64,000 bases of DNA, from IMG/VR virus record IMGVR_UViG_3300030380_006185, positions 92,274-156,273 of that record; one strand, 5' to 3'. The DNA is from a virus. The position numbers were made by a program, and so were the translations under genes. The notes under the pieces were generated by a model that was not told the DNA's origin, searched no databases, and saw only the letters and a program-made list of their open reading frames with translations. This document shows, piece by piece, positions 19,863 through 60,645 of the stretch (positions are counted from its first letter, which is position 1; every line of letters starts with the position of its first letter).

Positions 19863-20648
19863 TTACACTCCTCTTTCTGTGTCAAATGCTATTATATGGT
19901 CTCTACCTGTTAAATTATAGCCATATTCAGCACATAAATCAAATACTAAAGGATACATTTTAATTAATTCTTTTCTTGTATCACCCGCAGGCATTATAAA
20001 TGTTTTATGTTTTGGTATTTCCATTTTAATTCTAAAGTCCTCTATTTCTTTTAAACACTCATCAGTACCATCCCAAACTGGTTTATAATGATAATCAGTG
20101 TGGTAGTCTAATGTTTTTCTAATAGCACTATAATTTAGTCTTAATTTATTATGTTGCTTAATCATTCTTTCATCTGTTTCTTTTCCATTAGGTGTTAAAG
20201 CACCTAATTTAGGAACAGAATTAGAAAATTTAGGAGATAGAGAAATCAAACCTAATGGAAAATCAGTTTTAAGAAAATGAGAACCTTCAGTTTCAATAGT
20301 AATAAGAATGCCTCTTTGATTTGCAAAATGAGTTAACTCATTTACTAATTTAGGATGCATTGTAGGAGAACCACCTGTTAACATCATTTCTTTTACATGG
20401 GGGTTTTCATCATATATTTTAATAATATCATTAAAATTAAATGTTCCTTTTTCTGGGTGGATGCTTGTGTACCAAGAATCACACCACCCTCCTTCTTCTC
20501 CAAAGTAACACCTGTGAGTGCACCCAGTTGTTCTAACTGCAATGGTAGGTCTTCCAAATCGGCTACCTTCAGATTGAACACACCTATATAATTCTAGTAT
20601 AGGTAATCTTTTATCAAAATCTTTTATTCTTCCTAATGGTTTTTCCAT
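19863..20648 (-). CDS. queE: 7-carboxy-7-deazaguanine synthase (radical SAM)
   Basis: VQSEG, RTTGCTHRC...WCDS, LTGGSP, IETEG, SLSPK. Confidence 0.9.
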   Translation of the reverse strand: MEKPLGRIKDFDKRLPILELYRCVQSEGSRFGRPTIAVRTTGCTHRCYFGEEGGWCDSWYTSIHPEKGTFNFNDIIKIYDENPHVKEMMLTGGSPTMHPKLVNELTHFANQRGILITIETEGSHFLKTDFPLGLISLSPKFSNSVPKLGALTPNGKETDERMIKQHNKLRLNYSAIRKTLDYHTDYHYKPVWDGTDECLKEIEDFRIKMEIPKHKTFIMPAGDTRKELIKMYPLVFDLCAEYGYNLTGRDHIIAFDTERGV

Positions 20649-20710
20649 ACTATTTTATTAAAATATATTTAATTTTTATGTTGTTATAAGTAACTGTTGA
20701 TATCCAATAA

Positions 20711-21172
20711 TTATTCTCCATAAATTGCTGTATTTTTTCCATGTTCCATAAATTCAACTTGTACTACTCTTACTCGTCCATCTGTTTCTTCCTCAACAAA
20801 CATATTAAGTTTATTGTAGATATACTCAGCAAATTTTTCTGCACCAGTAGCATCTATTACTCTTAATTGGATTAAATTTTGTGCATCCATCATTCTAAAT
20901 GAATCCAATTCGGGGTCGTCGTTTGCAGCAATTAATGTGTGATCAAACATGTAATCCATCCAGTCTTTAGGGGACATACCATCTATTTGGGTTTTAGCTC
21001 GTTTCATTCCTCCAAAGTCCCAAACCCAATTTCTATGGTCAAGTAACCCTTCAAAAGTTACTTTAAATGATACTCCATACCCATGTAAATAACTACAATG
21101 TGTTTCTTTTGCTCTCCATTGACGGAATACTGTACTAAATCCGTCAAATATTTTAGTTGATTGATGTTTCAT
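20711..21172 (-). CDS. queD: 6-carboxy-tetrahydropterin synthase
   Basis: HCSYLHGY, WVWDFG, FDHT, GAEKFA; between queC and queE. Confidence 0.85.
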   Translation of the reverse strand: MKHQSTKIFDGFSTVFRQWRAKETHCSYLHGYGVSFKVTFEGLLDHRNWVWDFGGMKRAKTQIDGMSPKDWMDYMFDHTLIAANDDPELDSFRMMDAQNLIQLRVIDATGAEKFAEYIYNKLNMFVEEETDGRVRVVQVEFMEHGKNTAIYGE

Positions 21173-22038
21173 TATTTTATATTTAATTGTTCTTTTTCAT
21201 ACTCTGAAAGTACTTGTTCAACATATATTCTTGCTGTTTCCCATTTTACAGGGCCTGTTTCATCAGCATATCTTACAGGATCAGGTCTTCCCAATTTAAT
21301 AAATGCTTCTACTCGTTCAACTGAACTAGCTGATTTGTAATCTGAAAACCAATTATCACCTGAAGTAGATATAATTTGGATTGGTTTGTAACTTGTATTT
21401 GTACGAGAATAAACTTCATCAAAATCAAAACCTAAATATTTACATAGTTTTTCTCCATCTTGTAAGATAGTAAATTTATCACCTTCAAGATAAGGTGTAA
21501 AGTAACCTACTTTATCAGCATCCCAATTGCCTATTCTAAAAGCTGCATCGTCTGCATCTCTAAACTCTTGTCTGCAATCTGGGTAAATAGCATGATCACC
21601 TGCATGGATACCAAGTGCAATATCACAACCTTCACCTGTTTGGTTTGCTCTAGATAATGCTACTGCTTGTGTAATAGAGGCAAATATTTTATTTCTATTA
21701 GGTACAACAGTTGCTTTCATATTATCTTCAGCATAATGACCTTCGGGTACTTCATCTCCACCATCCACTAAAGCAGAATCAAGTAAATCAACTAAACCAT
21801 CTAGCTTAATTACTCTATATTTAACACCAGGATGTGAATCCCCATGTACTCCAATATTAATCATTACCTCATTATTAATATAATCTACTAATGATTGAGC
21901 GCGTTCTAACTCAACTCTATGTTTTTGTCCATAATCAAATGAAATAGCTGTTACCGTGTCATATTCTTTAAGACAACGTAACAACAATGTACTGGAATCC
22001 ATTCCTCCAGATAGGGAAACTACAACATGTTTTTCCAT
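21172..22038 (-). CDS. queC: 7-cyano-7-deazaguanine synthase (Zn-Cys-less variant)
   Basis: SGGMDS, FDYGQKH, VPNRN, HAGDHAIYPDCR. Confidence 0.92.
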   Translation of the reverse strand: MEKHVVVSLSGGMDSSTLLLRCLKEYDTVTAISFDYGQKHRVELERAQSLVDYINNEVMINIGVHGDSHPGVKYRVIKLDGLVDLLDSALVDGGDEVPEGHYAEDNMKATVVPNRNKIFASITQAVALSRANQTGEGCDIALGIHAGDHAIYPDCRQEFRDADDAAFRIGNWDADKVGYFTPYLEGDKFTILQDGEKLCKYLGFDFDEVYSRTNTSYKPIQIISTSGDNWFSDYKSASSVERVEAFIKLGRPDPVRYADETGPVKWETARIYVEQVLSEYEKEQLNIK

Positions 22039-22205
22039 AATTCTTCGTTATTTAAATGTTTAAATTCTTCTATTGTTAATCCTTTCATTAACATAAATGC
22101 TTCAAAATCTATGTCTAATAAACGATAATAATCATACCAATTTTCTTTCCATTCTTCACGGAATTTTTCAAATTCAATTTTTTTATTTAAATCTTTTTCA
22201 GTCAT
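22020..22205 (-). CDS. Hypothetical protein (MTEKDLNKK...)
   Basis: Start moved to the ATGA overlap with the upstream mini-gene. Confidence 0.55.
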   Translation of the reverse strand: MTEKDLNKKIEFEKFREEWKENWYDYYRLLDIDFEAFMLMKGLTIEEFKHLNNEELWKNML

Positions 22206-22294
22206 TCTATCATCATTATTAATATCATTATTATGGAAAAGATTACTATACCTAACCATGCTTCAAAACAACCTGTATTTTCTTCTTTACTCAT
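22202..22294 (-). CDS. 30-aa single-TM mini-protein (junction array)
   Basis: MSKEENTGCFEAWLGIVIFSIIMILIMMIE*. Confidence 0.55.
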   Translation of the reverse strand: MSKEENTGCFEAWLGIVIFSIIMILIMMIE

Positions 22295-22457
22295 CTTCTA
22301 TGTTTTTTATTTTTTTAATAATAAACTCAGATGATATAAGTTCTCTTACCCATCCTTCAATACCATTAAACCCATTTTTAATAATGTCATTACATATATT
22401 TTTAGTATAGTTAATAACTAATTCTTCAAATTCTTTTCTTGAAATTTCTTTACTCAT
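22287..22457 (-). CDS. 56-aa mini-protein (junction array)
   Basis: MSKEISRKEFEELV...KNIEDE*. Confidence 0.6.
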   Translation of the reverse strand: MSKEISRKEFEELVINYTKNICNDIIKNGFNGIEGWVRELISSEFIIKKIKNIEDE

Positions 22458-22469
22458 TTTTGTTTTGGT

Positions 22470-22766
22470 TTATACAATTTGTGCAATCAATTCATCCTTA
22501 TTAGTAAAGACATCTTCTTGACTATACCAATCGTATGAACTTTGGGTACTTTTTGTATGTGGATGTATGAAATCTCTTTTTGTTTCTATAAGATAATCTA
22601 TTTCAATACCCGACATTTCAGTAAAAGTTCCATCTAAATTACCCTTAGTATAAGGTTGTTGTTCGGTAACTCTAATCTTGTCTATCCTATTTTTACTTAT
22701 CTTTTTATCTCTTAATACATAGACATCTTGCCCTACTTCATACTTTACATTATATTGTTTACTCAT
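22470..22766 (-). CDS. Hypothetical protein (junction array)
   Basis: MSKQYNVKYEVGQ... Confidence 0.65.
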   Translation of the reverse strand: MSKQYNVKYEVGQDVYVLRDKKISKNRIDKIRVTEQQPYTKGNLDGTFTEMSGIEIDYLIETKRDFIHPHTKSTQSSYDWYSQEDVFTNKDELIAQIV

Positions 22767-22960
22767 CTTTGTTTTGGTTTTAAGTATTCTTCAATATCTC
22801 TTGACATCTCATCAAAGGTTATCCCTTGTGTGTCTGCCATATCTTGAATCTGTTTATCAGTAAGTACTAAAAAGTTAGCCTTAGGTTTTCTGTTCTTATG
22901 AATTTCATTAGCTTCCTTTAGTAACTTACTGACTAATTTCTTATCTTCTTCTTTACTCAT
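22763..22960 (-). CDS. Hypothetical protein (junction array)
   Basis: MSKEE...KPKQR*. Confidence 0.65.
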   Translation of the reverse strand: MSKEEDKKLVSKLLKEANEIHKNRKPKANFLVLTDKQIQDMADTQGITFDEMSRDIEEYLKPKQR

Positions 22961-23214
22961 CTTTGTTTTGGTTTATTTATAAGTAACTTTGTTAATTCTT
23001 CTTCAACATCAGGATGATAATATACATCAAGTCCATTCCACCAACTAACAAAAGATTCTTCACCCATTCGTTTCTTTAATTGTTTCTTCTTCTTTCTGGG
23101 TAATCTACCGTACCATTCTTTATTATTTTCACAAACTTTCCATTCATGTTGTAATGGTATCACCTCACCCTTAACCTCAATGGTTTCTAACTGTATGTTA
23201 ATCTCTTTACTCAT
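22957..23214 (-). CDS. Hypothetical protein (junction array)
   Basis: MSKEI...RLPRKKKK...KPKQR*. Confidence 0.65.
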   Translation of the reverse strand: MSKEINIQLETIEVKGEVIPLQHEWKVCENNKEWYGRLPRKKKKQLKKRMGEESFVSWWNGLDVYYHPDVEEELTKLLINKPKQR

Positions 23215-23359
23215 CTTTGTTTTGGTTTAAGTATTCTTGAAAATTTATTGTTCTATCAACTTCTTTTAGTGTTTCTTCCACCACCATTTTTAGTGTTTCA
23301 TCTTCAGATTCAACCACCCATCCCTTTTTATGAACCCATTTGTAATTTACTTCTTTCAT
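23207..23359 (-). CDS. 50-aa mini-protein (junction array)
   Basis: MKEVNYKWVHKKGW...EYLNQNKDE*. Confidence 0.6.
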   Translation of the reverse strand: MKEVNYKWVHKKGWVVESEDETLKMVVEETLKEVDRTINFQEYLNQNKDE

Positions 23360-23517
23360 CTTTGTTTTGGTTTAAGTGTTCTGATAGATTTAGGGATATA
23401 GGGTAATATTTTAACCTTACCGCCATACTCTTCTTTAATGGACTTTATTATAGTTTCTTTCATTTCTTTAGTATACGAACTAAAATCTTCTGGTGTATGT
23501 ACTGTTATTTTACTCAT
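23356..23517 (-). CDS. 53-aa mini-protein (junction array)
   Basis: MSKITVHTPEDF...LKPKQR*. Confidence 0.6.
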   Translation of the reverse strand: MSKITVHTPEDFSSYTKEMKETIIKSIKEEYGGKVKILPYIPKSIRTLKPKQR

Positions 23518-23529
23518 CTTTGTTTGGGT

Positions 23530-23658
23530 TTATCTAGTTTCATAATAACCTTTGCCTTTGTAATTCACATTTTTGTCTTTTCCAATGTAAAACAAGAACC
23601 ATATAATGGTAATAATAAAAACCAATTTAAGTATTAATCCAATATCAATTCTTCTCAT
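23530..23658 (-). CDS. 42-aa single-TM mini-protein (junction array)
   Basis: MRRIDIGLILKLVFIITIIWFLFYIGKDKNVNYKGKGYYETR*. Confidence 0.6.
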   Translation of the reverse strand: MRRIDIGLILKLVFIITIIWFLFYIGKDKNVNYKGKGYYETR

Positions 23659-23851
23659 CTTTGTTTTGGTTTTTAATATTCAACACCCATTCCAGTAAAT
23701 CAACCATACTACATTGTGTTTCGAATTGATGATGTTTTTCAGATATGCCCCACAAACCCCCATTTGGTGGATTATTTAAGAAATGAGATAATTCATCTTT
23801 ATGTTTATTCATTTCTATTAATTTTTCATATATTTCTTCTCTACTTCTCAT
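23645..23851 (-). CDS. Hypothetical protein (junction array)
   Basis: MRSREEI...LLEWVL...NQNKDEKN*. Confidence 0.65.
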   Translation of the reverse strand: MRSREEIYEKLIEMNKHKDELSHFLNNPPNGGLWGISEKHHQFETQCSMVDLLEWVLNIKNQNKDEKN

Positions 23852-24093
23852 CTTCTTTGTTTTTGTTTAGTATCAATAATATGCTCACCATCACCTAGAT
23901 GTAATGTTTCCATATGGATTTTAGCTGAATAAAGGTAATCCTTTTTCCATCCAAAAATATCATCGGTCTGATAACCGTTTCCCATCAAGTATCTTTCAGC
24001 ATGTAGTTTAGTTTCAAAATACATATAAGACTTAGTATTATACTTACCATCATATTGATTGAAGTTTATAATTGCTATTGTTTTGTTACTCAT
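23848..24093 (-). CDS. Hypothetical protein (junction array)
   Basis: MSNKT...KQKQRR*. Confidence 0.65.
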   Translation of the reverse strand: MSNKTIAIINFNQYDGKYNTKSYMYFETKLHAERYLMGNGYQTDDIFGWKKDYLYSAKIHMETLHLGDGEHIIDTKQKQRR

Positions 24094-24105
24094 CTTTGTT
24101 TTAGT

Positions 24106-24222
24106 TTATAATTTAGTTATTGAATATAATAAAATACTTATGACAATTCCTATAAAAATACCAATAGTAATTCCTTTTGATAAAGCCCAGTTCATATCTC
24201 TAACGTAATCTTCGTGTCTCAT
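24106..24222 (-). CDS. 38-aa single-TM mini-protein (junction array)
   Basis: MRHEDYVRDMNWALSKGITIGIFIGIVISILLYSITKL*. Confidence 0.6.
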   Translation of the reverse strand: MRHEDYVRDMNWALSKGITIGIFIGIVISILLYSITKL

Positions 24223-24725
24223 CTTCTTTGTTTTGGTGGTCTACCTCTTCTTTCTATTGATCTACCAGAGCGATCAAATGTTTTTAAACAATACATATAA
24301 AATTCTTCTGTTGTACCATCAAAATTTATAATATGCTCTTCATACTCATCTTTTGTCATAACAAATTCTCGTAAAAAACCTTTTTGTAGTGCTTCTAATT
24401 TAGCAGTTTCATCTTTTTCAAAATCTTCAATTAATCGTTTTCTTCGAGCTAAATCGACTTGGTTTGATTCAATTAATCTTTGATGATCATTACCATAAGA
24501 TTTAAATACTTCATTAAGTTCTATCTCAGTTAATTTCCACTGCCAGTAATAATGTGAAAATTCATATTCACCGTTTTTAATACGATCTAAAAATGTTGAT
24601 TTTTTTGGTAATGGTGGGGTTTTTGTTGTATATCGTCTCCACCAAAAGAATTGATTATAATTTAAGGGTTGTAACTGTTTTATTTTTTGTTTTACAGTTT
24701 TTTCATCAGACGTATTGTATAACAT
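24219..24725 (-). CDS. Hypothetical protein heading the junction array
   Basis: 168 aa, ends RRGRPPKQRR; own promoter motif at 24741. Confidence 0.7.
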   Translation of the reverse strand: MLYNTSDEKTVKQKIKQLQPLNYNQFFWWRRYTTKTPPLPKKSTFLDRIKNGEYEFSHYYWQWKLTEIELNEVFKSYGNDHQRLIESNQVDLARRKRLIEDFEKDETAKLEALQKGFLREFVMTKDEYEEHIINFDGTTEEFYMYCLKTFDRSGRSIERRGRPPKQRR

Positions 24726-24772
24726 AACCTTTAATTTGTAGTAATATAAGAAAAAAACTTGTAATCTCCAAG

Positions 24773-25567
24773 CTATAATCCGTTTATTTCACGAAACTTT
24801 TTAACATTATACTCTATAAACTCTAAATTAGCATCCTTTTCTTCTATATCTTGAAAATTATTCATATTTGCCTCTGGTTTATGAGGTAAACCTAAATCAA
24901 AATACATTTTTTGTTCAATGCCCGCCATTACTGGGTTTGATGTATCTATTGATTCAATACATTTCATGTTTTTATATAATCCAAATTCAATTGGGGAAGC
25001 AGTGCCTAATAAATGTACTCTATCTGTTGGGGATAATATTCCATCTTTTATTAAATTGTTTATAACCATATATCTACCAATTGCTTTACCAAAATCTTTA
25101 TTTGGGTGGGGGCAAACATCATTATAATATGAAGCACCGTATGAATATGCTATTTTTTTATATCCTAAATCTTTATACATTTGAGTACATAACGCTGCAT
25201 AATGTTGTGTTTTAGCTTGTACTACTGCAACCTTAGTAACTCCTTCAGGTAATTCAATTTGAGACCATATTTTAGCATTTCTAACTGATTCGCTATAATC
25301 TTCCCAAACATCAGGTACTATAAATTCATCAGGTTTAATTTCTTTAATCCAATGTAGTAAACGATCTGTATTATATGCTTCTCCTAATTCATGTAGTGAA
25401 TTATCCATTACAACATATCTACCTATACTTTTAACATTATTAAAAAATGTTCTATACTCTTCATTTTGATCTAATAAATGAGGTAAACAATAATCATAGT
25501 CATTAAATTCAAGACTTTTACTTAATAAACAAAATGGTACTTCGTGAGATATTTTTACTTTTTTCAT
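24773..25567 (-). CDS. TGT-fold protein, putative DpdA-type 7-deazaguanine transglycosylase
   Basis: VMDNS, IVPDV, AVVQ, VHLLG, SIDTS motifs in TGT order; same cluster as queCDE/folE2. Confidence 0.65.
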   Translation of the reverse strand: MKKVKISHEVPFCLLSKSLEFNDYDYCLPHLLDQNEEYRTFFNNVKSIGRYVVMDNSLHELGEAYNTDRLLHWIKEIKPDEFIVPDVWEDYSESVRNAKIWSQIELPEGVTKVAVVQAKTQHYAALCTQMYKDLGYKKIAYSYGASYYNDVCPHPNKDFGKAIGRYMVINNLIKDGILSPTDRVHLLGTASPIEFGLYKNMKCIESIDTSNPVMAGIEQKMYFDLGLPHKPEANMNNFQDIEEKDANLEFIEYNVKKFREINGL

Positions 25568-25608
25568 AACCTAAATATAATTAATAACCTTTAAAAAAAC
25601 ACGTAACC

Positions 25609-26631
25609 TTAATAAGTTTTAGTGTTATCTTCGTCTATTTCTTTTATTTTTTGTTGTAAATTTTGTATAGCAATCCCTGATTTTTTACTAGATGCTCCTT
25701 GTTTTTGGATTTTTTGGATTTCATCTAAATATTGTTGTTTTTCTTTTGAAATTAGAGGGGGAGATGAAGGTAAAATGATTTTAGGGGTTGGTTGTTTTTT
25801 AACTAATGTTCTTTTTTTTTCTTTATATAAGTTAACTTTAGGTTTATTTTTTAAAAATAAATTATTTGCAGAAATAAGTAACATAACAGCTAAGGGATCA
25901 AAAACAAATATAAAAACTAATATAAACCAATTTACTACTTGGTCAGTATCTTTTCCTGTAATATTAGCAACATATTTTAAAGGTCCAATTTCAGCAGCAA
26001 CATCTGAGTTAGTTTCTAGGTCTAATATATTTAAATCAAGTTGGGTTACACTATCATTTAAAGCATCTTGTTTTAAAGCTATACTATCTCTTCTAGCAGT
26101 TTGAGAATCTAATTGTTGTTGTATAATTCTACGAGTTGAAGATGATTGAGTAGTTATAAGTTGCCCTTCACTATTAGTATATTGAATAACATTATTACCT
26201 AAACTTTCACTTAATTGAATAATTTGAGTATTTATATCTTGTTGTTCTTTTGATATGTTTTTTATTTGTTGTTTATATCTATCTCGTTTTTTTACTTGAA
26301 CTTCAACTTGTTTATCTACTGCTTGCATTTTATAGGATGTTTCTTGATATGCAGAAACTAAAAATCCGTAAATTCCAAGTGAGGTTATAGCCATCAATGC
26401 AATTAAAGCTGTAATAAGGTATGTTTTTTTAAGCCAATGGATAGTCTTCCAGAATCTTTCTAAATATGAAGCAGTAATCAGTTTAGATGCTTCAAGTATG
26501 CCAGCCATTATAATAACTGCTGTTGCTTGTGATGCAAATAACTTACTAATACCAAAAACACTATAATATGCCGCTACTGTTGCTAAACTTAAAGCAGCTA
26601 CTAAAATTAATATTGGGAAAAATCGTTTCAT
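25609..26631 (-). CDS. Membrane protein with long coiled coil
   Basis: About 3 N-terminal TMs, coiled coil, FVFDPLAV TM; start moved to MKRFF. Confidence 0.7.
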   Translation of the reverse strand: MKRFFPILILVAALSLATVAAYYSVFGISKLFASQATAVIIMAGILEASKLITASYLERFWKTIHWLKKTYLITALIALMAITSLGIYGFLVSAYQETSYKMQAVDKQVEVQVKKRDRYKQQIKNISKEQQDINTQIIQLSESLGNNVIQYTNSEGQLITTQSSSTRRIIQQQLDSQTARRDSIALKQDALNDSVTQLDLNILDLETNSDVAAEIGPLKYVANITGKDTDQVVNWFILVFIFVFDPLAVMLLISANNLFLKNKPKVNLYKEKKRTLVKKQPTPKIILPSSPPLISKEKQQYLDEIQKIQKQGASSKKSGIAIQNLQQKIKEIDEDNTKTY

Positions 26632-26639
26632 AGCGTGTA

Positions 26640-26665
26640 AAATAAGGAGCCCCTCTTGGGGCTCC
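26640..26665 (-). terminator. Intrinsic terminator
   Basis: GGAGCCCC-aaga-GGGGCTCC-ttattt. Confidence 0.8.
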
Positions 26666-26683
26666 AAATATTTTTAAATAAAA

Positions 26684-26839
26684 TTATGATTTAAAAGCAA
26701 GTAAGAATTCTCTTACTCCAATACCGAATGCAATACCTGCATATAATACAGCACCTTTTAACAATAATGCAACACCAACTCCACCTGCTAAAGCAGCTCG
26801 GAACCATGATGAGTTTACGATTGATTTGATTTTATTCAT
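26684..26839 (-). CDS. 51-aa hydrophobic protein in the lysis cassette
   Basis: MNKIKSIVNSSWFRAALAGGVGVALLFKGAVLYAGIAFGIGVREFLLAFKS*; not in ORF track. Confidence 0.6.
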   Translation of the reverse strand: MNKIKSIVNSSWFRAALAGGVGVALLLKGAVLYAGIAFGIGVREFLLAFKS

Positions 26840-26858
26840 TATATTGATTTTTGGGGGT

Positions 26859-27563
26859 TTATACTATTTTACTAGATTCAACTTCTTGAATCATTTGGAA
26901 ATGAACTTTAGCTATTCTATCTCTACCTTCTTCTGATAAAAGATACTTGTGACAGTTATCTGAATTAGTCATAAAAAAATTTTCAGAAAGTATTGCAGGC
27001 ATTGAAGTATTAATAAGAACGTAAAAATTAGATTCTTGATCTACATCACCATCTGAATAGGTGTCTTTTCTCATGTATTCTCCTGGAAACTCTCTAAGTG
27101 CTTTTTCAAATAATATAGTAGCTATATCATCCGATTTAGTTTCACCTACTGAAGTATACACTGACCACCCATTAGCAGACTCACTACTAAATCCATTAGC
27201 ATGTACACTTACATATATGCATTTTTGTGATGAAGATTTTGCTATTTGGTTGGCTGTTTTAACACGTTCTGAAAGGCTTATATCTTCTTGAGTGTCAACT
27301 AAATTAATATATTCGATTCCTGCTTCATTGCACATTTTAACTAAACGATTTACAATTGCTCTATTAAATTCTCCTTCAAATAATTGAGTCCCATCAGGCC
27401 ACACAGGTGATCTTTTGCCTGGTGTTTGGTATACCCCATCTATAATACCACCATGCCCATTATCAAATATCCAAAGATAATTTGATTTAGGTGTTGGGTT
27501 ATTTTGGGTAACAGTAAGATCATATTCTGTCCCACAATTAGGACATTTTATTGTTTTATCCAT
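26859..27563 (-). CDS. N-acetylmuramoyl-L-alanine amidase (Amidase_3) endolysin with N-terminal CxxC
   Basis: DNGHGG, EGEFN, LSERV, VSVHAN, PAILSENFFM; start moved to MDKTIKCPNC. Confidence 0.9.
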   Translation of the reverse strand: MDKTIKCPNCGTEYDLTVTQNNPTPKSNYLWIFDNGHGGIIDGVYQTPGKRSPVWPDGTQLFEGEFNRAIVNRLVKMCNEAGIEYINLVDTQEDISLSERVKTANQIAKSSSQKCIYVSVHANGFSSESANGWSVYTSVGETKSDDIATILFEKALREFPGEYMRKDTYSDGDVDQESNFYVLINTSMPAILSENFFMTNSDNCHKYLLSEEGRDRIAKVHFQMIQEVESSKIV

Positions 27564-27801
27564 TGGAGTCTGTTTTATTTGTTTTAGAGTTAGCAAAGGC
27601 TTTAATTGTTGAAACACCCAACATAGTGGCTGAGAAGATAAGCATTGAGTCAAATAATCTTTCATTTATTGAAAAAAAATGAAAACCATCACCTATAAAG
27701 GCAATACAAACAAGAATCCCAGAAATAATACCCATTGTTTTTTTAGAGGAATATTTACTGTCGTTTAGGTCTTCTTTAAAAATATCTTTTACAAACTTCA
27801 T
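27556..27801 (-). CDS. Putative holin (2 TM)
   Basis: 81 aa, two hydrophobic segments, overlaps the endolysin start. Confidence 0.55.
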   Translation of the reverse strand: MKFVKDIFKEDLNDSKYSSKKTMGIISGILVCIAFIGDGFHFFSINERLFDSMLIFSATMLGVSTIKAFANSKTNKTDSNG

Positions 27802-27825
27802 AGTGTTGTTTGTTAATAAATATTG

Positions 27826-29535
27826 TTAACCGTCACAACTTACACAATCTGCAATTCTTGATCCTAAATCTCCTTTAATTACTGAGTCTGTTCTTAGGTA
27901 ATAAAGGGTTTTTATTCCTAATTTCCATGCTTCTATATGAACTTGATTTATCCATCTAGGTGAGTCAGTTGGTGAAAAACATAAATTAAGAGATTGAGTT
28001 TGATCTATATATTTTTGTCTAATAGCAGCTTGCTGAACTAAACCTAATTGATTAATTTCTGCAAAAGTTAAAAATACTTCTTTATCATCTTCATTTAATA
28101 CTTCACTTGGTAAATTTTGAACAGACCCATCATCTGCTAAAATTTGATCCCATACTTTATCTATATCATGACCTTTTTCTCTTAGAAGATTTTGTAAATC
28201 TGGATTTTTAACAATAAATGTGCCTTTAGCACCATTAAATGTGTACATATTAGCAGGATAAGGCTCAATACCAGCTGAGCAGTTGCTAATTCTAGAATTG
28301 GAGACAGTAGGGGCAATAGCTAAAACATGAGTATTTCTCATTCCAGTACCTTTACACCATAAAGGTTCACCGTATTCTTGGGCTAATTGTCTACTTGCTG
28401 CTTCTGCTTTAAGTTTTATATTACTAAAAATGGTGTGTGTCCAAGCTGTAGAAGCAATTGAATTAAAAGGTAAATTTTTCTTTTGTAAAAAGGTATGCCA
28501 ACCCATTACTCCTAAACCTAATGCTCTGCCTTTTGAAGCATGTCTATGTGTACGCTTCATAGATTCTTGTCCACTAGTTTTATCTATAAATTCTTGCATT
28601 ACACCATCTAAAAAGTAAACAGCAGTTTCAACTACATCAGTATCTTTCCATTCATCGTATTTAGCTAAATTTAATGAAGATAAACAACATATAAATGAAT
28701 GCTCTTCGTCTGTGTGTAGTGTTATTTCAGAACAAATATTAGTCATAGACACGTTTAAATTATTCATTAAATATGCCATAGGATTATCTTTATTAATGTT
28801 ATCTTCAAACATTATATAAGGTTCACCTGTTTCAACCCGTGACTTTAAAATTTCTAACCATAAATCCATTGCTTCTTGATCTCGATCATTTAATTTTCTC
28901 ATAAAGGTATCATCAACAACTACACATTGGTGTAAATTTAAACACTGTCTATTTGGGTCACCTTTAGGTCTACGAATTTGTAAAAATTCTTTAATATCTG
29001 GGTGGTTAATATTTAGATTAACAGATGCTGCTCCTCTTCTTACTGATCCTTGGTTGGTTGCTATAATGGTTGAATCATAAATTTTAGCCCAAGGTACTAC
29101 ACCTTCACTTTTACCATTTCCTCTAATTGAAGCACCTCTTCCTCTAATTTTAGATAAAGAAATACCAACACCCCCACCATAAGAAGTTAATCTCATTAGT
29201 TCAGCATTTGTTAAACCAATACCTCTAACTGAGTCAGGAGTATCAATTCCAAAACATGAGATAGGTAAACCTCTATCTGTTCCAGTATTTGATAAGACAG
29301 GGGAAGCTAAACCAATCCACCCATTCCAAATATATTTAAAAAACTTTCCTGCTAAATCAGGTCGTTCTAATCTATCAGCAACTGCATTAGCTACTCTTCT
29401 ATATGCTTTTTTAGGTGTTTCACCTGGGAGGAGATATCCCTTTGAGATTGTAGACAAAGCTACTTCATCTAAAAATTCAGGGTAATCTTTACCTTTTTCC
29501 CATTGTGTATAATCTGCAATTAAATTGTTATCCAT
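27826..29535 (-). CDS. nrdA: Class I ribonucleotide reductase alpha subunit, no ATP cone
   Basis: LPISCF, GGGVG, TNICSEI, IAPTVS, DQTQSLN, KTLYYLR, C-terminal CVSC. Confidence 0.95.
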   Translation of the reverse strand: MDNNLIADYTQWEKGKDYPEFLDEVALSTISKGYLLPGETPKKAYRRVANAVADRLERPDLAGKFFKYIWNGWIGLASPVLSNTGTDRGLPISCFGIDTPDSVRGIGLTNAELMRLTSYGGGVGISLSKIRGRGASIRGNGKSEGVVPWAKIYDSTIIATNQGSVRRGAASVNLNINHPDIKEFLQIRRPKGDPNRQCLNLHQCVVVDDTFMRKLNDRDQEAMDLWLEILKSRVETGEPYIMFEDNINKDNPMAYLMNNLNVSMTNICSEITLHTDEEHSFICCLSSLNLAKYDEWKDTDVVETAVYFLDGVMQEFIDKTSGQESMKRTHRHASKGRALGLGVMGWHTFLQKKNLPFNSIASTAWTHTIFSNIKLKAEAASRQLAQEYGEPLWCKGTGMRNTHVLAIAPTVSNSRISNCSAGIEPYPANMYTFNGAKGTFIVKNPDLQNLLREKGHDIDKVWDQILADDGSVQNLPSEVLNEDDKEVFLTFAEINQLGLVQQAAIRQKYIDQTQSLNLCFSPTDSPRWINQVHIEAWKLGIKTLYYLRTDSVIKGDLGSRIADCVSCDG

Positions 29536-29540
29536 AACTT

Positions 29541-30530
29541 TTAAAATATTGAAGTGGAATCCCACTCTAAGTGTCCTTTACTATAATTTGTTACTCTATT
29601 AGCAAAAAAGTCTGTATGTTGCTTTCCAGCACTTAATGAATCAAACCATTTCATGTTTTTAACTGAAGTCATATCAACATCTAATATAATGGGTCTATAT
29701 CCTAAGTCTGATAGTTTTGTATTGACTCTATTTTTAATAAAATTTTGTAGGTCATATTTTGAACATCCTTCAAGATCACCTAATTCATAAACTTTATCTA
29801 TAAAATCTAATTCAAGTTGAAGAGAAAGTAATGCAGCTTCATTAATTGATGCTTCTAATTCAGGTGTTTTTAAATGTGGGTTTTCTTCTAATAATGTTCT
29901 AAATAACCAACACCCTGCTTCTGAGTGCATTGATTCATCTCTAATACTCCATTCAACAATTTGTCCTACACCTTTTAATTTGTTTCTCATTTTAAATGAA
30001 AGTAAAACAGCAAATGAAGAAAATAAATTTACACCTTCTGTAAATGCAGAAAATACAGCTAACGATTTAGCTCTTTCATGCCAATCTACTTCTCCATTAA
30101 ATGAATCTCTAACATCCATTAATGTTTCTATTTTAGCCATTGTGGTTTCATCTTCTAAAAATTCACTAAAATCATCTAATCCTAATTCTTCATTCAATAA
30201 AGAATAAGCTTCAGCGTGAATAGTTTCCATAGCACCAAAAGTTGTGGCCATTGCTATAATTTCAGGTTTTCTAAACCATTTTGTAACTAATCCTGTCCAA
30301 TAATCATTTACAACGGTTTCAGTTTGTGCAAACCCTTTTAAAATTGAACCTATTATATTTTTTTCAGTTTCTGTAAGATTTTGTTTCCAGTCATTTACAT
30401 CTGACATCATAGGTACTTCTGTGTGTATCCAATGAGCTTGTTGTTGTTTTAGCCAATAGTCAAAGGCTTGGGGGTATTCAAAAGGTTTATAGACTATTCT
30501 TTCTTGTAGTAAGTTTGTTTTTTTAGACAT
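29541..30530 (-). CDS. nrdB: Ribonucleotide reductase beta subunit
   Basis: ETIHAEAY, EGVNLFSSF, RDESMH, DFFANRVTNY. Confidence 0.95.
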   Translation of the reverse strand: MSKKTNLLQERIVYKPFEYPQAFDYWLKQQQAHWIHTEVPMMSDVNDWKQNLTETEKNIIGSILKGFAQTETVVNDYWTGLVTKWFRKPEIIAMATTFGAMETIHAEAYSLLNEELGLDDFSEFLEDETTMAKIETLMDVRDSFNGEVDWHERAKSLAVFSAFTEGVNLFSSFAVLLSFKMRNKLKGVGQIVEWSIRDESMHSEAGCWLFRTLLEENPHLKTPELEASINEAALLSLQLELDFIDKVYELGDLEGCSKYDLQNFIKNRVNTKLSDLGYRPIILDVDMTSVKNMKWFDSLSAGKQHTDFFANRVTNYSKGHLEWDSTSIF

Positions 30531-32982: not shown

Positions 32983-34059
32983 TTATTCTGGTTCAGTAAC
33001 AAAGGCTTCAACTTGTGAAGTATCGGAATTTTCTTCAATTATATTAAAGTCTCCTCCACCTAACACACGTCTCCACTCTTCTACTTGTGATTCTTTGTAT
33101 TTCTTTAAATCTTTATCTGTGTCTGTAATAAATCCATGAGGGGTCATAATAATTCTTCCTCTAGATTGTATACCATTAATGTGATTTTTATCAATCTGTA
33201 AATTGGTTCGTTTAGCAAATTCTACTTGTTTACCATCTTTGATAGCTTTTAGCTTGGATGTTCCAGAATCTGCAATATTTCCAAATGTTACTACAAATGT
33301 AGCATCAAACCACATTGCAAAACCACCTTTATTCATTAATTTAGGTTGTCCCATAGGTACAACAGGTTTAGCTGCCCAAACTTTATTAACACAAACTAAA
33401 GTATTCGTGTATTTTGAGCTTTCTTTACGTGATAATGTAATACGCTGGTTAACATTATTTCCGAATTGAGTTGACATAGCACCTGCATTCCATTCATTGT
33501 TGTTTTTGTTTGATTTAACAGACATTTCACAAGGTACAGAACCAATTGAATCCCATAAAAATAAGAGATCATATGGTAAATTACCTTTCTTTTGTTCATC
33601 CATTAAATCTAAAATAAATGCAGCAACATCTTCAATTGTGTTAATAGATTCTCTATCAACATAAATAAATTGACCTTCATAATCAATTAATTCACCTGTA
33701 TTTTCATCTAATATTTCATTAACTTCAAAGCCCATCATCTTAGCATGCTCCCAAGACCACTTCATTTCAGTTACAATAAAAACAGGTAATATACCACGTT
33801 TTTGGGCAGCAACTGCTGCCTCAAGTAACGCGGTAGTTTTTCCTGTGTCTGAATGTCCTCTAAGTAAAACAATATGACCTAAAGGTATTCCTGGTACTGA
33901 TGTAACTTCTTGAAATGCCGGTGAAAGTGGGATCCAATCTTGTGCTTTAAATTTAACATTAGATGCTAAACCTTTTTTGTTTTTAAAACTATTTAAATTA
34001 AAACTAGATTTCAATTCCTTATCTACTGCTTCTGACAGTGATTTTCTTTTTCTTGGCAT
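32983..34059 (-). CDS. RecA/UvsX-like recombinase
   Basis: GIPLG, GHSDTGKT, LWDSIG. Confidence 0.85.
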   Translation of the reverse strand: MPRKRKSLSEAVDKELKSSFNLNSFKNKKGLASNVKFKAQDWIPLSPAFQEVTSVPGIPLGHIVLLRGHSDTGKTTALLEAAVAAQKRGILPVFIVTEMKWSWEHAKMMGFEVNEILDENTGELIDYEGQFIYVDRESINTIEDVAAFILDLMDEQKKGNLPYDLLFLWDSIGSVPCEMSVKSNKNNNEWNAGAMSTQFGNNVNQRITLSRKESSKYTNTLVCVNKVWAAKPVVPMGQPKLMNKGGFAMWFDATFVVTFGNIADSGTSKLKAIKDGKQVEFAKRTNLQIDKNHINGIQSRGRIIMTPHGFITDTDKDLKKYKESQVEEWRRVLGGGDFNIIEENSDTSQVEAFVTEPE

Positions 34060-34069
34060 ATAAATTTAT

Positions 34070-34897
34070 TTAAAAGGGTAAACCGTCTTCTTCGTCAAAC
34101 ATCTCACTGAATTTATCAGCTTTAGTTTCTTTCTTTTTAGTAGAGAGGCTATAATTTGATTCAACTTTTTCATCATCAAAACCACTTGCAGGTTCAGAAG
34201 AAATTTCTCCTTCTTCATCTGTTGGGTCTAACCATTCTTGTAAAGCACCTTTAAGAGTGTCAAAAGGGAGTGGACGATAAGTTTCTTTAGGGTTTTGTTG
34301 GTCATCTAACCATGTTTCAACTTGCGCCTTATCTTTTGATAGTGGGGTTTGCTTCATTGAAGGGGAGATAGTTGTTTTGTTGTACTGAGTACCATTAGTA
34401 TCAGGTCCAGTAGTAACTAATTTAATGTCTCTACCATTTACAATATCTGTGAAATCACCTACTTCTTCATCAGCAGCTAAATTCAAAAATGCTTCATATA
34501 CTTGTTTACCAAATTCCCACATTTGAACACCTTCTGATTCCTGTCCTCTAACAACTACAGGTACAAAAGTACGGGTTTTTGGATCTAACTTTTTAGCTAG
34601 AGACCAATTCTCTTTATCATTAGTACCTCTAAGTTGCTTTGCAAACTCAGCAATTGGATCTTTTTCATCCCAATTTAGTGGAGAAGCTAGCATTCTAAAT
34701 TTACCAATATTATAATAAAATTGCATTTCAGTAAAAGGATATTCTTTATTGTATTTAAATGGTACAACTCTTACTGTTTGTTTACCTATTGAAGGTTTGA
34801 ATTTTTTTAACTGAGGGTAATCAGATTTGTTACTTCCATTGTTATTGGAAGATTTTTGGAATGTGTCAAGTTTTTTCTTGATTGCATCTAGATTCAT
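34070..34897 (-). CDS. Single-stranded DNA-binding protein (gp32-like)
   Basis: VRVVP, DPIAEF, GRDI, acidic tail ending DGLPF. Confidence 0.8.
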   Translation of the reverse strand: MNLDAIKKKLDTFQKSSNNNGSNKSDYPQLKKFKPSIGKQTVRVVPFKYNKEYPFTEMQFYYNIGKFRMLASPLNWDEKDPIAEFAKQLRGTNDKENWSLAKKLDPKTRTFVPVVVRGQESEGVQMWEFGKQVYEAFLNLAADEEVGDFTDIVNGRDIKLVTTGPDTNGTQYNKTTISPSMKQTPLSKDKAQVETWLDDQQNPKETYRPLPFDTLKGALQEWLDPTDEEGEISSEPASGFDDEKVESNYSLSTKKKETKADKFSEMFDEEDGLPF

Positions 34898-53186: not shown

Positions 53187-53921
53187 TTATAAATTAAATC
53201 TATATTTTAAAGCATTATAGTTTTGCAATACTTCTGTATCAGTTAGAATTTTATCATATAATTGTACGCAAGCTATACTACCACTCCAACTATTTTCAGC
53301 ATCTATACCACCAATTTTAACTTGATTATCTGTTACTTTAATACCACTAGAGTAATCTGTTGATTCAAATGCCGAACCATTTACAGATACTGATAGTTTT
53401 TGATTTATATTATCATGGCATCCAACTAAATAATACCAATTTCCCCTTTCAACACGTTCTGTAGAAACAAAAGATGTTTCAGTTGATCCATTATTAGATG
53501 CTTGAACACTAACACTACCTATTGAATTTGAAGAGGCTGAGATTTGTAATTTAAATACTTTATTATTTCCTGATGTGTCCCATTTAGAAATTATATCATT
53601 ATTTGTACCATAAGGAGCACCACCATCAAATAAAGTTCCTACATAAACCCAACAAGCGAATGATAAATCAGTATAAGTAGTAGAGTATGGGTTTTGAGCT
53701 TCTATTTTTCCAATAGAATTTAAAGAAAAAAATCCAAGATTATCAGTATTATAATTTACAGAACTACTTACACTACCTGTTAAGTTGTTTACTAAACTAT
53801 AAGTGGTAGAATCTGAAGTGTCTCCACTTCCAGAGATATATGATTTATGGTTAGCAGCATCTATATAAAATACTAAACCATCAGTAACTATTTGATTAAT
53901 ACCTCCTTGTACTTTGCTCAT
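53187..53921 (-). CDS. LamG/concanavalin A-like virion protein
   Basis: GLVFYIDAAN..SY, WYYL, YDKILT..EV.QNYNALK.RF. Confidence 0.75.
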   Translation of the reverse strand: MSKVQGGINQIVTDGLVFYIDAANHKSYISGSGDTSDSTTYSLVNNLTGSVSSSVNYNTDNLGFFSLNSIGKIEAQNPYSTTYTDLSFACWVYVGTLFDGGAPYGTNNDIISKWDTSGNNKVFKLQISASSNSIGSVSVQASNNGSTETSFVSTERVERGNWYYLVGCHDNINQKLSVSVNGSAFESTDYSSGIKVTDNQVKIGGIDAENSWSGSIACVQLYDKILTDTEVLQNYNALKYRFNL

Positions 53922-53974
53922 TTATCGTAAATTAGTTATTCTATTTATAAATATTTAAAAATTAGTTAATAAAA

Positions 53975-54670
53975 TTACAAACTAAATCTTGTCTTTAGTG
54001 CATTATAATTTTTTACAATCTCAGAAGGAGATAATATTCTATTATATATAGCACAATTAGATATGTAACCTTTCATAGAATAATTAGTAGTTGGAAAACT
54101 TGAACCTCCTAACCGATGAATAGAATCATTAAAAGAAATATTAGAATTTTCTAATAAAGTAGGAGATAAAACTGTATTGGTATAAATAGATCCTGTTCCT
54201 GTTGTATTGTTATAAGTAAAAACAGCATTGTTCCACTCATTAAAGGAAGAAGTAGAATTTATTAATGTAATGTCATCAGGAGTAGCAAAATCTACTGTTA
54301 TAGGTCTATTAGGAAGAGTATTATGTACTAATAATCTATTATCCCCATCTACTAAATTTCCTATTAAAGTACTATAAAGTGCTGACCCAACAGTTCCTGT
54401 TCCTGTTATTTTAAACCAAACAGAAATAGTAAAGTCTTCTACATTTTCTAAGGGAGGAATTTCAATGGTTGCATTAGCTCCTCCATCAAATGCCCAAGAT
54501 CCTGCAGCTTCACTTCCACTAAAGCTTACGCCGCTATAAATACTTCCTGTTTCATTATTAACAAGGTTATTACATATAGAACTACCACTAGTATAACAAC
54601 GAGGACTAGCAGAGTCTAAATAATATAATAAACCTTTTGATGAAATATTTGATCCTACTACTCCACTCAT
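53975..54670 (-). CDS. LamG/concanavalin A-like virion protein
   Basis: LLYYLDSA, FDG, FTISVW, YNRILS..EI..NYNALKTRF. Confidence 0.75.
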   Translation of the reverse strand: MSGVVGSNISSKGLLYYLDSASPRCYTSGSSICNNLVNNETGSIYSGVSFSGSEAAGSWAFDGGANATIEIPPLENVEDFTISVWFKITGTGTVGSALYSTLIGNLVDGDNRLLVHNTLPNRPITVDFATPDDITLINSTSSFNEWNNAVFTYNNTTGTGSIYTNTVLSPTLLENSNISFNDSIHRLGGSSFPTTNYSMKGYISNCAIYNRILSPSEIVKNYNALKTRFSL

Positions 54671-55440
54671 AATCCAAATCGGGTTTTAGTTGTATTATAA
54701 TTTCTTGCTACTTCATCGGATGATAAAGTTCTAGTATAAATTTGCACCATTGCTAACTCCCCTGAAAATCTATACGCCCCTGAAGATCCACCTTTTCCTA
54801 TATCTGGTTCATCTATAGCTGGATTTACTGAGCTGGTTCTGCTTTGAGAGATGGGGATAAGGGATGAGGTTACTTCAAGACCATTTATATAAAAAGTAGT
54901 AGTAGTTGTATTATCACCATTATTTTTACCTGTTACTGTAACATGATTAAATGGGTTTGGGTAACTAGATGTAGTAAAAAGTGAATATGTTGAGGATCTG
55001 GGAGAATGAAAAATACCATTAGTTATTACAACAATAATATTGTCATTTGTTATCCTAAACCATCCCCTCTGTGTTGAAGTTCCCATTGATCCTAAATAAA
55101 TAACAGCCCCCTGAATTCCAGTATACTCTCTGTTATGATTTACCCATGTAGAATAAGTAAAATTATCAGGCATATTTTTGATAGGGGAATTTGTTGCTTT
55201 CCAATAATCATCAGTCCCATCAAATTCAAAAATATTCCCATAAGATGAAGTTGCTATAGTAGCGCCCCCTTGTGAATCTAATCTTTTAAATATAGATGAT
55301 TCTGATCCTGAGGGTAGTTCAGGTCTTCCTAAGTTAAATATTTCAGTCCCACCAACACTACCACATTTTGGGTTTTGTGCATCAATGTAAAATACTAAAC
55401 TATTATCATTTACTATATTTGGTGAAAAACTAAAACTCAT
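54667..55440 (-). CDS. LamG/concanavalin A-like virion protein
   Basis: LVFYIDA, FDGTDDY, YTRTLS..EV..NYN..KTRFGL. Confidence 0.75.
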   Translation of the reverse strand: MSFSFSPNIVNDNSLVFYIDAQNPKCGSVGGTEIFNLGRPELPSGSESSIFKRLDSQGGATIATSSYGNIFEFDGTDDYWKATNSPIKNMPDNFTYSTWVNHNREYTGIQGAVIYLGSMGTSTQRGWFRITNDNIIVVITNGIFHSPRSSTYSLFTTSSYPNPFNHVTVTGKNNGDNTTTTTFYINGLEVTSSLIPISQSRTSSVNPAIDEPDIGKGGSSGAYRFSGELAMVQIYTRTLSSDEVARNYNTTKTRFGL

Positions 55441-58132: not shown

Positions 58133-58495
58133 CTATAATTTAGGTTCCCAATCTTTAGGTTTATTATTTAAACCTCTAAAAATTTCCTTTTCATAGTCTT
58201 CCATTTCCTCCCAAGTCTGTGGTTGGAACTTAAAATATATCCAAGTTACAGGTATAAAAGTCCAACAAGCAATAAAAGGAATAGCCCAATTTTCATTTTC
58301 TCCTAAATATAAAAGAAAAGATGTTATAAACGCAATTACCATAATATAAGTTATTGGGTGTAATTTAAACATAAAGAATTTTTTATTTTTTTCTGGGTGT
58401 ATAATGGGTCTATACAAATTAAATAGTACTCTTCTTATTTTTTTATATCCACTAGGGTGTTTTACTAATAGTCTTTCGATTCTTTCTTTTTCCAT
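58133..58495 (-). CDS. Small 2-TM membrane protein
   Basis: Two hydrophobic segments. Confidence 0.55.
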   Translation of the reverse strand: MEKERIERLLVKHPSGYKKIRRVLFNLYRPIIHPEKNKKFFMFKLHPITYIMVIAFITSFLLYLGENENWAIPFIACWTFIPVTWIYFKFQPQTWEEMEDYEKEIFRGLNNKPKDWEPKL

Positions 58496-58498
58496 TTC

Positions 58499-60572: not shown

Positions 60573-60592
60573 TTTAAATTGTTTTATATGTG

Positions 60593-60642
60593 TATAAATA
60601 TAAAAAAAGAATTAACTATTTATTTATAGTAGAATATTTATA
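60593..60642. promoter_or_regulatory. Divergent pair of TATTTATA putative late promoters
   Basis: Minus-strand copy at 60593-60600; plus-strand copies at 60621 and 60635 before ATG 60646. Confidence 0.55.
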
Positions 60643-60645
60643 ATC

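Follow-up and report, generated by a model that had tools for sequence, protein, structure and literature searches.

How does a phage come to carry a run of small, unrelated genes that all begin inside copies of one short sequence, and what might that sequence do? This question was raised by a stretch of viral DNA of 64,000 nucleotides (nt) (IMG/VR record IMGVR_UViG_3300030380_006185, positions 92,274 to 156,273), hereafter the window. It is the terminal 64 kb of a 96%-complete record of 156,273 bp from an uncultured Flavobacterium-type phage, referred to here as genome G000. An initial annotation of the window had placed an array of mini-genes between a DpdA-like gene and queC. This layout was recovered here, with g01 and the DpdA-like gene on one side and g13 and queC on the other. 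The locus is encoded entirely on the minus strand, in the order DpdA-like gene (25567-24773), g01 (24725-24219), g02-g12 (24222-22202), g13 (to 22020) and queC (22038-21172). The array itself consists of 11 mini open reading frames (ORFs), g02-g12, encoding 30-98 amino acids (aa), each starting inside one copy of a linker of ~24 nt with the consensus T-AAACCAAAACAAAG-ATG-AGT-AAA. Single cassettes of this array have been exchanged between phages with breakpoints at the linker, which is probably a translational stop/start element that doubles as the crossover point for general short-homology recombination.

Anatomy of the linker

The 11 motif copies counted in the initial annotation were all seen, ten of them good and one decayed, each giving the start of the next ORF. 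The junction ATGs lie at window positions 24222, 24093, 23851, 23658, 23517, 23359, 23214, 22960, 22766, 22457 and 22294, at a spacing of 129-309 nt. The 14-mer AAACCAAAACAAAG was exact in five copies and carried one mismatch in four others, among which the copy before g04 (J3) also had an extra AAG ahead of its ATG. J1 had two mismatches plus an extra AAG like that of J3. The junctions are as follows.

J1 (g01 to g02), 24214..24240, minus strand: variant CCACCAAAACAAAG-AAG-ATGA; the stop of g01 is the TGA of ATGA
J2, 24085..24108, minus strand: one mismatch; the stop of g02 is the TAA at -15
J3, 23843..23869, minus strand: AAG-insertion variant; C-terminus of g03 is KQKQRR-stop
J4, 23650..23673, minus strand: exact; g04 crosses J4 in the third frame and ends NQNKDEKN-stop, at +14
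J5, 23509..23532, minus strand: one mismatch; the stop of g05 is the TAA at -15
J6, 23351..23374, minus strand: exact; C-terminus of g06 is LKPKQR-stop
J7 (g07/g08), 23206..23229, minus strand: exact, with the 5' extension GAATACTT; C-terminus of g07 is NQNKDE-stop, TAA at +6
J8, 22952..22975, minus strand: exact; C-terminus of g08 is NKPKQR-stop
J9 (g09/g10), 22758..22781, minus strand: exact, with the GAATACTT extension; C-terminus of g09 is LKPKQR-stop
J10, 22449..22472, minus strand: one mismatch; the stop of g10 is the TAA at -15
J11 (before g12), 22286..22309, minus strand: 5' half decayed, 3' half GAAGATGAGTAAAGAA intact; C-terminus of g11 is NIEDE-stop, TAA at +6

Matches with no more than one mismatch numbered nine in the window, every one inside the array; first-order Markov simulations averaged 0.10 and never exceeded 1. 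Across the whole 156,273-bp genome, the 18-mer with up to two mismatches occurred only in the array and on one strand, and a control pattern gave 0 matches. The earlier observation that the motif does not precede core genes in the window thus extends to the complete genome.

The linker holds a stop codon in all three frames (TAA at -15, TGA at +2 and TAA at +6). Frame use by the upstream genes was 5/3/3, and their C-terminal endings agreed with the three-frame reading first proposed for the motif: five genes ended at the TGA of ATGA (..KQR(R)-stop), three in the third frame (N(Q/I)..DE-type endings) and three at the TAA of the 5' edge. The upstream stop fell at -15, +2 or +6 in 10/11 window junctions, the exception being g04 at J4 (+14). 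The two copies described as sharing a GAATACTTAAA(A)CC extension and differing by a 1-nt indel were identified as the g07/g08 and g09/g10 junctions; in comparison to J7, J9 has one additional A, which shifts the frame of the upstream gene.

Conservation of the flanks was measured on 332 copies from other contigs, chosen by the 18-mer alone. T was present at -15 in 83% of these, and the AGT AAA after the ATG was kept at 60-75%. Among 346 junctions from 90 loci, the upstream ORF stopped at TAA (+6) in 104, TGA (+2) in 67 and TAA (-15) in 63 (234/346 in sum). The T at -15 was retained in 76-77% of the junctions where it does not serve as a stop. Given that stops are used in every frame and that this T is kept when unused, conservation is at the nucleotide and not the peptide level, as had been proposed from the window.

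The description of the motif as non-palindromic was likewise upheld, with no inverted repeats or dyad symmetry detected at the junctions. Six junctions, taken with 30-nt flanks at both ends and folded as DNA, were less stable than shuffles (z +0.25 to +1.58), and their centroids were open or nearly open.

Several of these characteristics are relevant to translation. The linker carries A at -3, -6, -12 and -13 and has neither a Shine-Dalgarno (SD) sequence nor a G-rich core. In Flavobacterium johnsoniae, A at these same positions and low structure raise initiation (PMC6847099). An SD core was found for 4 of the 111 long ORFs in G000 versus 4.2 in shuffles, and leaders were A-rich; the other genomes compared (G001, G002 and the sister genome G006) likewise had no SD signal and A-rich leaders. 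The UvsX-like recombinase of G000 was 67% identical (aa) to the annotated recombinase of Flavobacterium phage immuto, the closest cultured relative. Together, the sequence features of the linker would fit a role in stop/start coupling and SD-less initiation: with stops and a start built into one element, a ribosome would terminate within a few bases of the next start. A host-type translation consensus as the sole explanation of the linker was ruled out, as the 18-mer was near chance across the 596 Gb of prokaryote genomes searched and G000 uses the linker at none of its other genes.

Exchange of cassettes between phages

We further investigated the occurrence of the linker outside G000. The exact 18-mer was found in at least 119 stretches of IMG/VR, many of which form arrays of as many as 23 copies within 6.5 kb; among the IMG/VR matches listed, the median ORF behind the linker was 59 aa. 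The 596 Gb of prokaryote genomes contained 94 stretches, nearly all of them single and in scattered taxa. No linker was found in 50,697 deposited phage records, where 31-37-nt queries gave chance-level single matches (E >= 0.1); searches of these phages with the locus (megablast/blastn) or with g01 (tblastn) also returned no match. A full-text search of the literature for the linker 14-mer found no paper. Copies numbered 26 in G001, 18 in G002 and 29 in G003, arranged in one or two clusters per genome and on one strand, and 0 in the sister genome G006 and in phage immuto. A total of 411 linker-led ORFs fell into 290 protein clusters.

The initial annotation had suggested looking for the same cassettes with the same flanks in unrelated phages, and these were found. 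In G001 (IMGVR_UViG_3300030102_006934, a 380-kb record), the copies of g02, g03, g05, g07, g08 and g10 were 97-99% identical at the nt level and still joined by the linker, and g12 had two copies of about 90% nt identity. The core background was far more divergent, with core proteins of G001 and G000 only 31-50% identical in aa (UvsX 43-50%, ribonucleotide reductase 31-34%). For G002, 25/385 ORFs were common with G000. The G001 copies sit at two sites; the order at site A is g08, x, g10, g05, g03, x, g07, versus 3, 5, 7, 8, 10 in the window. Each cassette alignment between the two genomes begins ~14-20 nt ahead of the linker ATG and ends ~10 nt past the next. The individual cassettes are given below.

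g02 cassette, 24106..24222, minus strand: 38 aa, one hydrophobic segment; 99.1% nt identity to the copy at G001 site B
g03 cassette, 23848..24093, minus strand: 81 aa; 97.9% nt identity at G001 site A, where it adjoins g05, not g04
g04 cassette, 23645..23851, minus strand: 68 aa; 86-90% nt identity in G002 and G003, ORF still open
g05 cassette, 23530..23658, minus strand: 42 aa, one hydrophobic segment; nt identity 99.2% in G001 and 96.1% in G002
g06 cassette, 23356..23517, minus strand: 53 aa; homologue not found among the fetched loci
g07 cassette, 23207..23359, minus strand: 50 aa; 98.0% nt identity at G001 site A
g08 cassette, 22957..23214, minus strand: 85 aa; 99.2% nt identity at G001 site A
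g09 cassette, 22763..22960, minus strand: 65 aa; 75-77% nt homologues in G004, L022 and L051, ORF open
g10 cassette, 22470..22766, minus strand: 98 aa; phrog_25586, function unknown
g11 cassette, 22287..22457, minus strand: 56 aa; homologue not found among the fetched loci
g12 cassette, 22202..22294, minus strand: 30 aa, one hydrophobic segment; 93% aa identity in the sister G006

The three single-transmembrane peptides noted initially correspond to g02, g05 and g12, each of which has one hydrophobic 19-mer (mean Kyte-Doolittle 2.4-2.5). The six mini-ORFs missing from the ORF track would be accounted for by length, as six of the array ORFs fall below 60 aa. Searches of Pfam and PHROGs with g01-g10 gave no match except phrog_25586 for g10, whose ESM-Atlas look-up returned viral hypothetical clusters only. 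Among the cassette homologues all ORFs were open, and changes at codon positions 1/2/3 numbered 76/37/71. Second positions change least, indicating that these ORFs are coding but fast-evolving.

The g10 cassette was also encountered, at 88-98% aa identity, in ten further contigs from several samples, where it had at least seven upstream and at least six downstream neighbours. A probe for its start matched seven metagenome contigs, and at one locus (L348) a g09-like gene (66% aa) lay upstream of g10, as in the window. The g09/g10 junction of the window, probed with an exact 38-nt sequence, had no match in metagenome contigs.

Breakpoints were counted on 159 inter-contig homology blocks (at least 85% identical) from 90 loci, using a zone from -30 to +15 of the linker ATG. 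At the 5' side of the blocks 78% of ends lay at the linker, and at the 3' side 62%, versus 8% for random positions, and 168/187 homology blocks corresponded to a single cassette. The same pattern was apparent in three sisters (L222, L223 and L224), whose g01 was 96-97% identical (aa) and which have the window's gene order. Their alignments to the window all end inside J1, at 24227, 24222 and 24219, respectively. For L222, which belongs to genome G006, from the same sample as G001 (IMG 3300030102), the alignment resumes at 22305 inside J11, and one 99-aa cassette stands in place of g02-g11. L224 has two other cassettes and then a linker fused to g13, with the alignment resuming at 22190, the start of g13, and L223 has at least five other cassettes. 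The replacement cassettes of the sisters are all joined by the same linker. The expectation that gain, loss, replacement and reordering of cassettes should break at the motif was thus matched in the sisters, in G001 and in the block ends of the 90 loci.

Such rearrangements could in principle arise as an assembly artefact, with reads misjoined at the repeated linker. All of the sequences are metagenome assemblies, and the internal synteny of G001 at an offset of ~230 kb is what two joined genomes may look like. However, the repeat (24-34 nt) is shorter than the usual final assembly k-mers and far shorter than the reads, and the same arrangements were present in independent samples (L343/L351; L345/L347; L022/L044/L080). 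Sister contigs from three samples also break at one junction. We consider an artefact extremely unlikely.

Proposed crossover mechanism and alternative explanations

The proposed mechanism has a translational and a recombinational part. On the mRNA, the linker would punctuate a promoter-less, terminator-less polycistronic run of accessory mini-genes. It would stop the upstream gene in whichever frame, at the TAA (-15), TGA (+2) or TAA (+6), and would present a start (ATG AGT AAA) that is free of structure, rich in A and SD-less, such as Bacteroidia ribosomes use. As the sole sequence common to otherwise unrelated cassettes, the linker would also act as the crossover point. Crossover would proceed by homologous or short-homology recombination, probably with the phage's UvsX-like and gp32-like proteins, during replication and co-infection, and its outcome would be single cassettes deleted, inserted, replaced, reordered or passed between phages of the same hosts. 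With three stops in place, neither a join of any kind nor slippage by 1 nt in the A runs would do harm. Recombination of this kind may be ongoing, and the linker may be retained for exchangeability as such.

Two of the genes concerned lie within the window.

32983..34059, minus strand: UvsX/RecA-like recombinase (PF00154, 28 bits)
34070..34897, minus strand: gp32-like single-stranded DNA-binding protein (PF08804, E 3e-14)

The genome also encodes a 5'-3' exonuclease and a DnaB-like helicase. No match to tyrosine (PF00589) or serine (PF00239) recombinases was obtained in the whole 156-kb genome, in agreement with the lack of an integrase reported for the window. The array had further been described as integron-like but possibly recombinase-independent, and neither label was retained. 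In comparison to integrons, the array shares one-directional, apparently promoter-less runs of mostly unknown small cassettes behind a promoter-like region, bounded by repeats and variable among relatives. It differs in having no IntI, no attI and no attC-like imperfect palindrome that folds as a single strand, its linker being a non-palindromic, translated stop/start overlap of ~24 nt. As for recombinase independence, the phage encodes its own UvsX/RecA-like recombinase and gp32-like protein, and ordinary homologous recombination at a short shared sequence would therefore suffice, as for the promoter-early stem-loops (PeSLs) of T4-type phages discussed below. The UvsX/RecA-like protein is the probable enzyme behind the exchanges.

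A number of observations weigh against the linker as a crossover point or complicate its interpretation. The identical linker core of ~18-30 nt is short for RecA-type exchange. Because the linker is always at a gene boundary, the breakpoint statistic cannot tell the two apart, and of the window's own order only the g09/g10 adjacency has independent, weak support. G001 has collinear internal matches (64-76% nt) at an offset of ~225-233 kb as well as two UvsX-like genes, and may be two related genomes joined in assembly or contain a large duplication. In relatives of ~70% identity, g01 and DpdA are separated by 2-5 kb of other genes that lack the linker, and this plasticity of the locus means that the linker is not needed for plasticity there. 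Larger linker-free accessory blocks are also common to G000 and G001. Finally, C at -11, -10 and -5 and G at -1 of the linker differ from the general leader of the genome (A at -11 in 70% of ordinary genes, versus C in the linker), and therefore a translation optimum alone does not explain the exact sequence.

Some of these points would suit a linker that is only a translation signal kept for expression, in which case the shuffling would be ordinary mosaicism at gene boundaries with or without it. Linker-free relatives vary at the locus too, G000 and G001 have linker-free blocks in common, and the linker is SD-less, A-rich, unstructured and right at the start codon. The start-associated sequences (SAS) of mycobacteriophages, which are unlinked to recombination, provide a precedent (PMC3203893). 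The resolution of exchange down to single cassettes (168/187 blocks), the 97-99% identity of cassettes while core proteins are at 31-50%, and the presence of at least seven upstream neighbours of g10 are nevertheless difficult to reconcile with this explanation. The C/G positions unlike the general leader, and the fact that no core gene uses the linker, also argue against it, and we regard it as unlikely.

The same C/G positions, conserved beyond general leader composition, would be expected if a dedicated factor recognised the linker. Candidates are a nuclease or recombinase with site specificity and, by analogy to T4 RegA/RegB, an RNase or RNA-binding regulator that acts on all linker-led genes together. 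The exact conservation of 18-24 nt in more than 100 contigs of unrelated phages and the absence of the motif from host-type genomes point in the same direction. Yet the genome has no integrase or resolvase domain, the linker has no hairpin or dyad symmetry, and the predicted model of g01 has no recombinase-like fold. Genes present in the linker-bearing G000, G001 and G002 but not in G006 were only tail-fibre-like Laminin_G_3 genes and sugar enzymes. A dedicated factor is accordingly rather improbable. The same low expectation applies to the broader proposal that the arrays are an integrase-less capture and co-regulation system with a dedicated linker-recognising factor, forming a common gene pool of unrelated phages of Flavobacterium-like hosts.

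We also considered whether each linker might hold a phage-specific promoter just upstream of the ATG, making every cassette its own (near-)leaderless transcription unit. Its T-rich/A-rich 5' edge (A/T-T-T-AAACC) lies ~10-17 nt before the ATG, where a -10-like element would be expected. Sigma-70-type sites were no more frequent than chance (41 found versus 39.9 expected), with no excess in the array, and no Bacteroidota -33/-7 pair was detected on the coding strand of window positions 20000-28000. No terminator was found at the junctions; the sole terminator-like hairpin in the array span (23977-23964) is inside the g03 ORF. In addition, overlaps of upstream genes with the following start reach 8 nt, fitting coupling, and the genome has a distinct promoter-like class, CGTATATTAC ... 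AAAGGTT-ATG, one member of which is ahead of g01.

24726..24772, minus strand: promoter-like box and AAAGGTT-ATG leader before g01, TTTTT-(C)GTATATTAC ... AAAGGTT-ATG

Members of this class consist of TTTTT-(C)GTATATTAC, 12-14 nt, and AAAGGTT abutting the ATG, and precede at least eight minus-strand genes including g01 and DpdA (window 24726-24772 and 25568-25610; genome 81266, 71035, 69333, 68460 and 63984, minus). The sequence AGGTTATG occurred 12 times on the minus strand and once on the plus strand. Judged by its sequence and placement, the box would function as a promoter, and the copy before g01 is the probable start of a transcript carrying the array. With no excess of promoters or terminators in the array and such a box before g01, the array would most simply be the distal part of the g01 transcript, and separate promoters in each linker are very unlikely.

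Among known systems, the linker works like the PeSLs of T4-type phages but lacks both of their defining features, the promoter and the terminator. PeSLs are short conserved sequences flanking small nonessential ORFans; each consists of a sigma-70-like early promoter and a terminator hairpin, located between genes, and mini-circles were shown by inverse PCR (Arbiol et al. 2010, PMC2839356; Comeau et al. 2014, PMC4122927). As with PeSLs, small ORFans make up the array, the region is plastic, and the phage is large and lytic, with T4-type recombination genes and no site-specific recombinase. Close relatives also differ by insertion, deletion or replacement of single ORFs with crossovers in the repeats, as seen in sisters L222-L224 and at the breakpoints of the 90 loci. 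Unlike PeSLs, the linker has no promoter, hairpin or intergenic space, being a translational stop/start overlap inside what is probably one operon, in an SD-less host group, and one linker is common to phages with little or no core similarity.

The SAS of Cluster K mycobacteriophages contain the SD core AGGAG and are scattered over half the genome (Pope et al. 2011, PMC3203893). Like the linker, they are asymmetric repeats with a length of at least ~13 nt that keep one orientation and lie a few bases ahead of the ATGs of non-structural genes of different families; the upstream stop is sometimes within the repeat, host genomes essentially lack them, and their proposed role in translation initiation is unproven. 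In contrast to SAS, which have not been tied to cassette exchange, the linker has no SD core, extends over the start and the first two codons, is packed into tight arrays and marks the breakpoints of recombination.

The arrangement also resembles a more general scheme. Botstein's modular theory of phage evolution, discussed in PMC2839356, places short homologous 'linker' sequences between exchangeable modules. As in that theory, functional units are exchanged here at short conserved flanking sequences; the differences are that the unit is a single mini-gene and that one standard linker of defined translational layout recurs in more than 100 contigs.

Neighbouring genes and wider meaning

The array is anchored between genes that are conserved in relatives.

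24219..24725, minus strand: g01, 168 aa, lineage-conserved; 5' anchor of the array, running into J1
24773..25567, minus strand: DpdA-like gene, 5' flank; homologues adjoin g01 and queC in 60+ relatives; named from the initial annotation and context
22020..22259, minus strand: g13, 3' anchor; conserved small gene ahead of queC in relatives
21172..22038, minus strand: queC, 3' flank

The likely start of g13 is the ATG at 22205, overlapping the g12 stop as ATGA, and the DpdA-like gene had no Pfam match. Relatives of g01 were found at 80 loci (35-97% aa), where it is always beside DpdA and queC and carries the invariant motif NYNQF.WWR. Distant relatives have the order g01, DpdA, queC without the array. 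DpdA is followed by g01 in the window and the three sisters, and g01 by DpdA in all more distant relatives (loci L225-L301). Between g01 and DpdA, loci L226, L228, L234 and L252 have several accessory genes led by a recurring leader, AAAATAAAAGTT-ATGA, and L252 carries both this leader and the array linker.

The C-terminal tail of g01, RGRP(P)K, is AT-hook-like, with R160, G161, R162, P163 and K165 invariant (alignment A1), and g01 may be a DNA-binding partner of the 7-deazaguanine module. The DNA encoding this tail (..CCACCAAAACAAAGAAGATGA) is similar to the linker, a likeness that could account for the docking of the array at this point. The predicted model of g01 is helical (pLDDT 87.8) and had no PDB match, and g01 itself had no Pfam or PHROG match. 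We dropped g01 as a candidate array-associated recombinase, given the lack of a PDB match and its presence in array-free relatives.

Larger variable blocks were also observed elsewhere in the window. Positions 58133-62721 and 1819-2592 encode three DXD glycosyltransferases and DUF1796 peptidase-like, DnaJ-like and cytidylyltransferase proteins that are 76-95% identical (aa) to those of G001. These genes are absent from the sister G006, and such blocks are a second, linker-free exchange route between G000 and G001. At 26684-30530, a small ORF, an amidase and both ribonucleotide reductase subunits have no counterpart in the otherwise collinear G006 (80-97% nt); this block begins right at a strong terminator-like hairpin (26646-26665). 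Three tandem paralogues with a Laminin_G_3 (concanavalin-like) domain at 53187-55440, probably receptor-binding proteins, are absent from G006 and have distant matches in G001 and G002.

Phage mosaics rarely show the places and rules of exchange so clearly, whereas here one standard sequence marks single-gene swaps between genomes at 31-50% core identity. The linker is a clean natural case of the 'linker' predicted by modular-evolution theory, and it carries the PeSL principle over from punctuation of transcription to that of translation, among hosts that initiate without Shine-Dalgarno pairing. As a compact natural stop/start element, it is a possible expression linker in Bacteroidota. It also provides a sequence handle on accessory mini-genes that move fast and whose functions are unknown; these number in the hundreds (411 ORFs, 290 clusters) and may include genes for host take-over or anti-defence.

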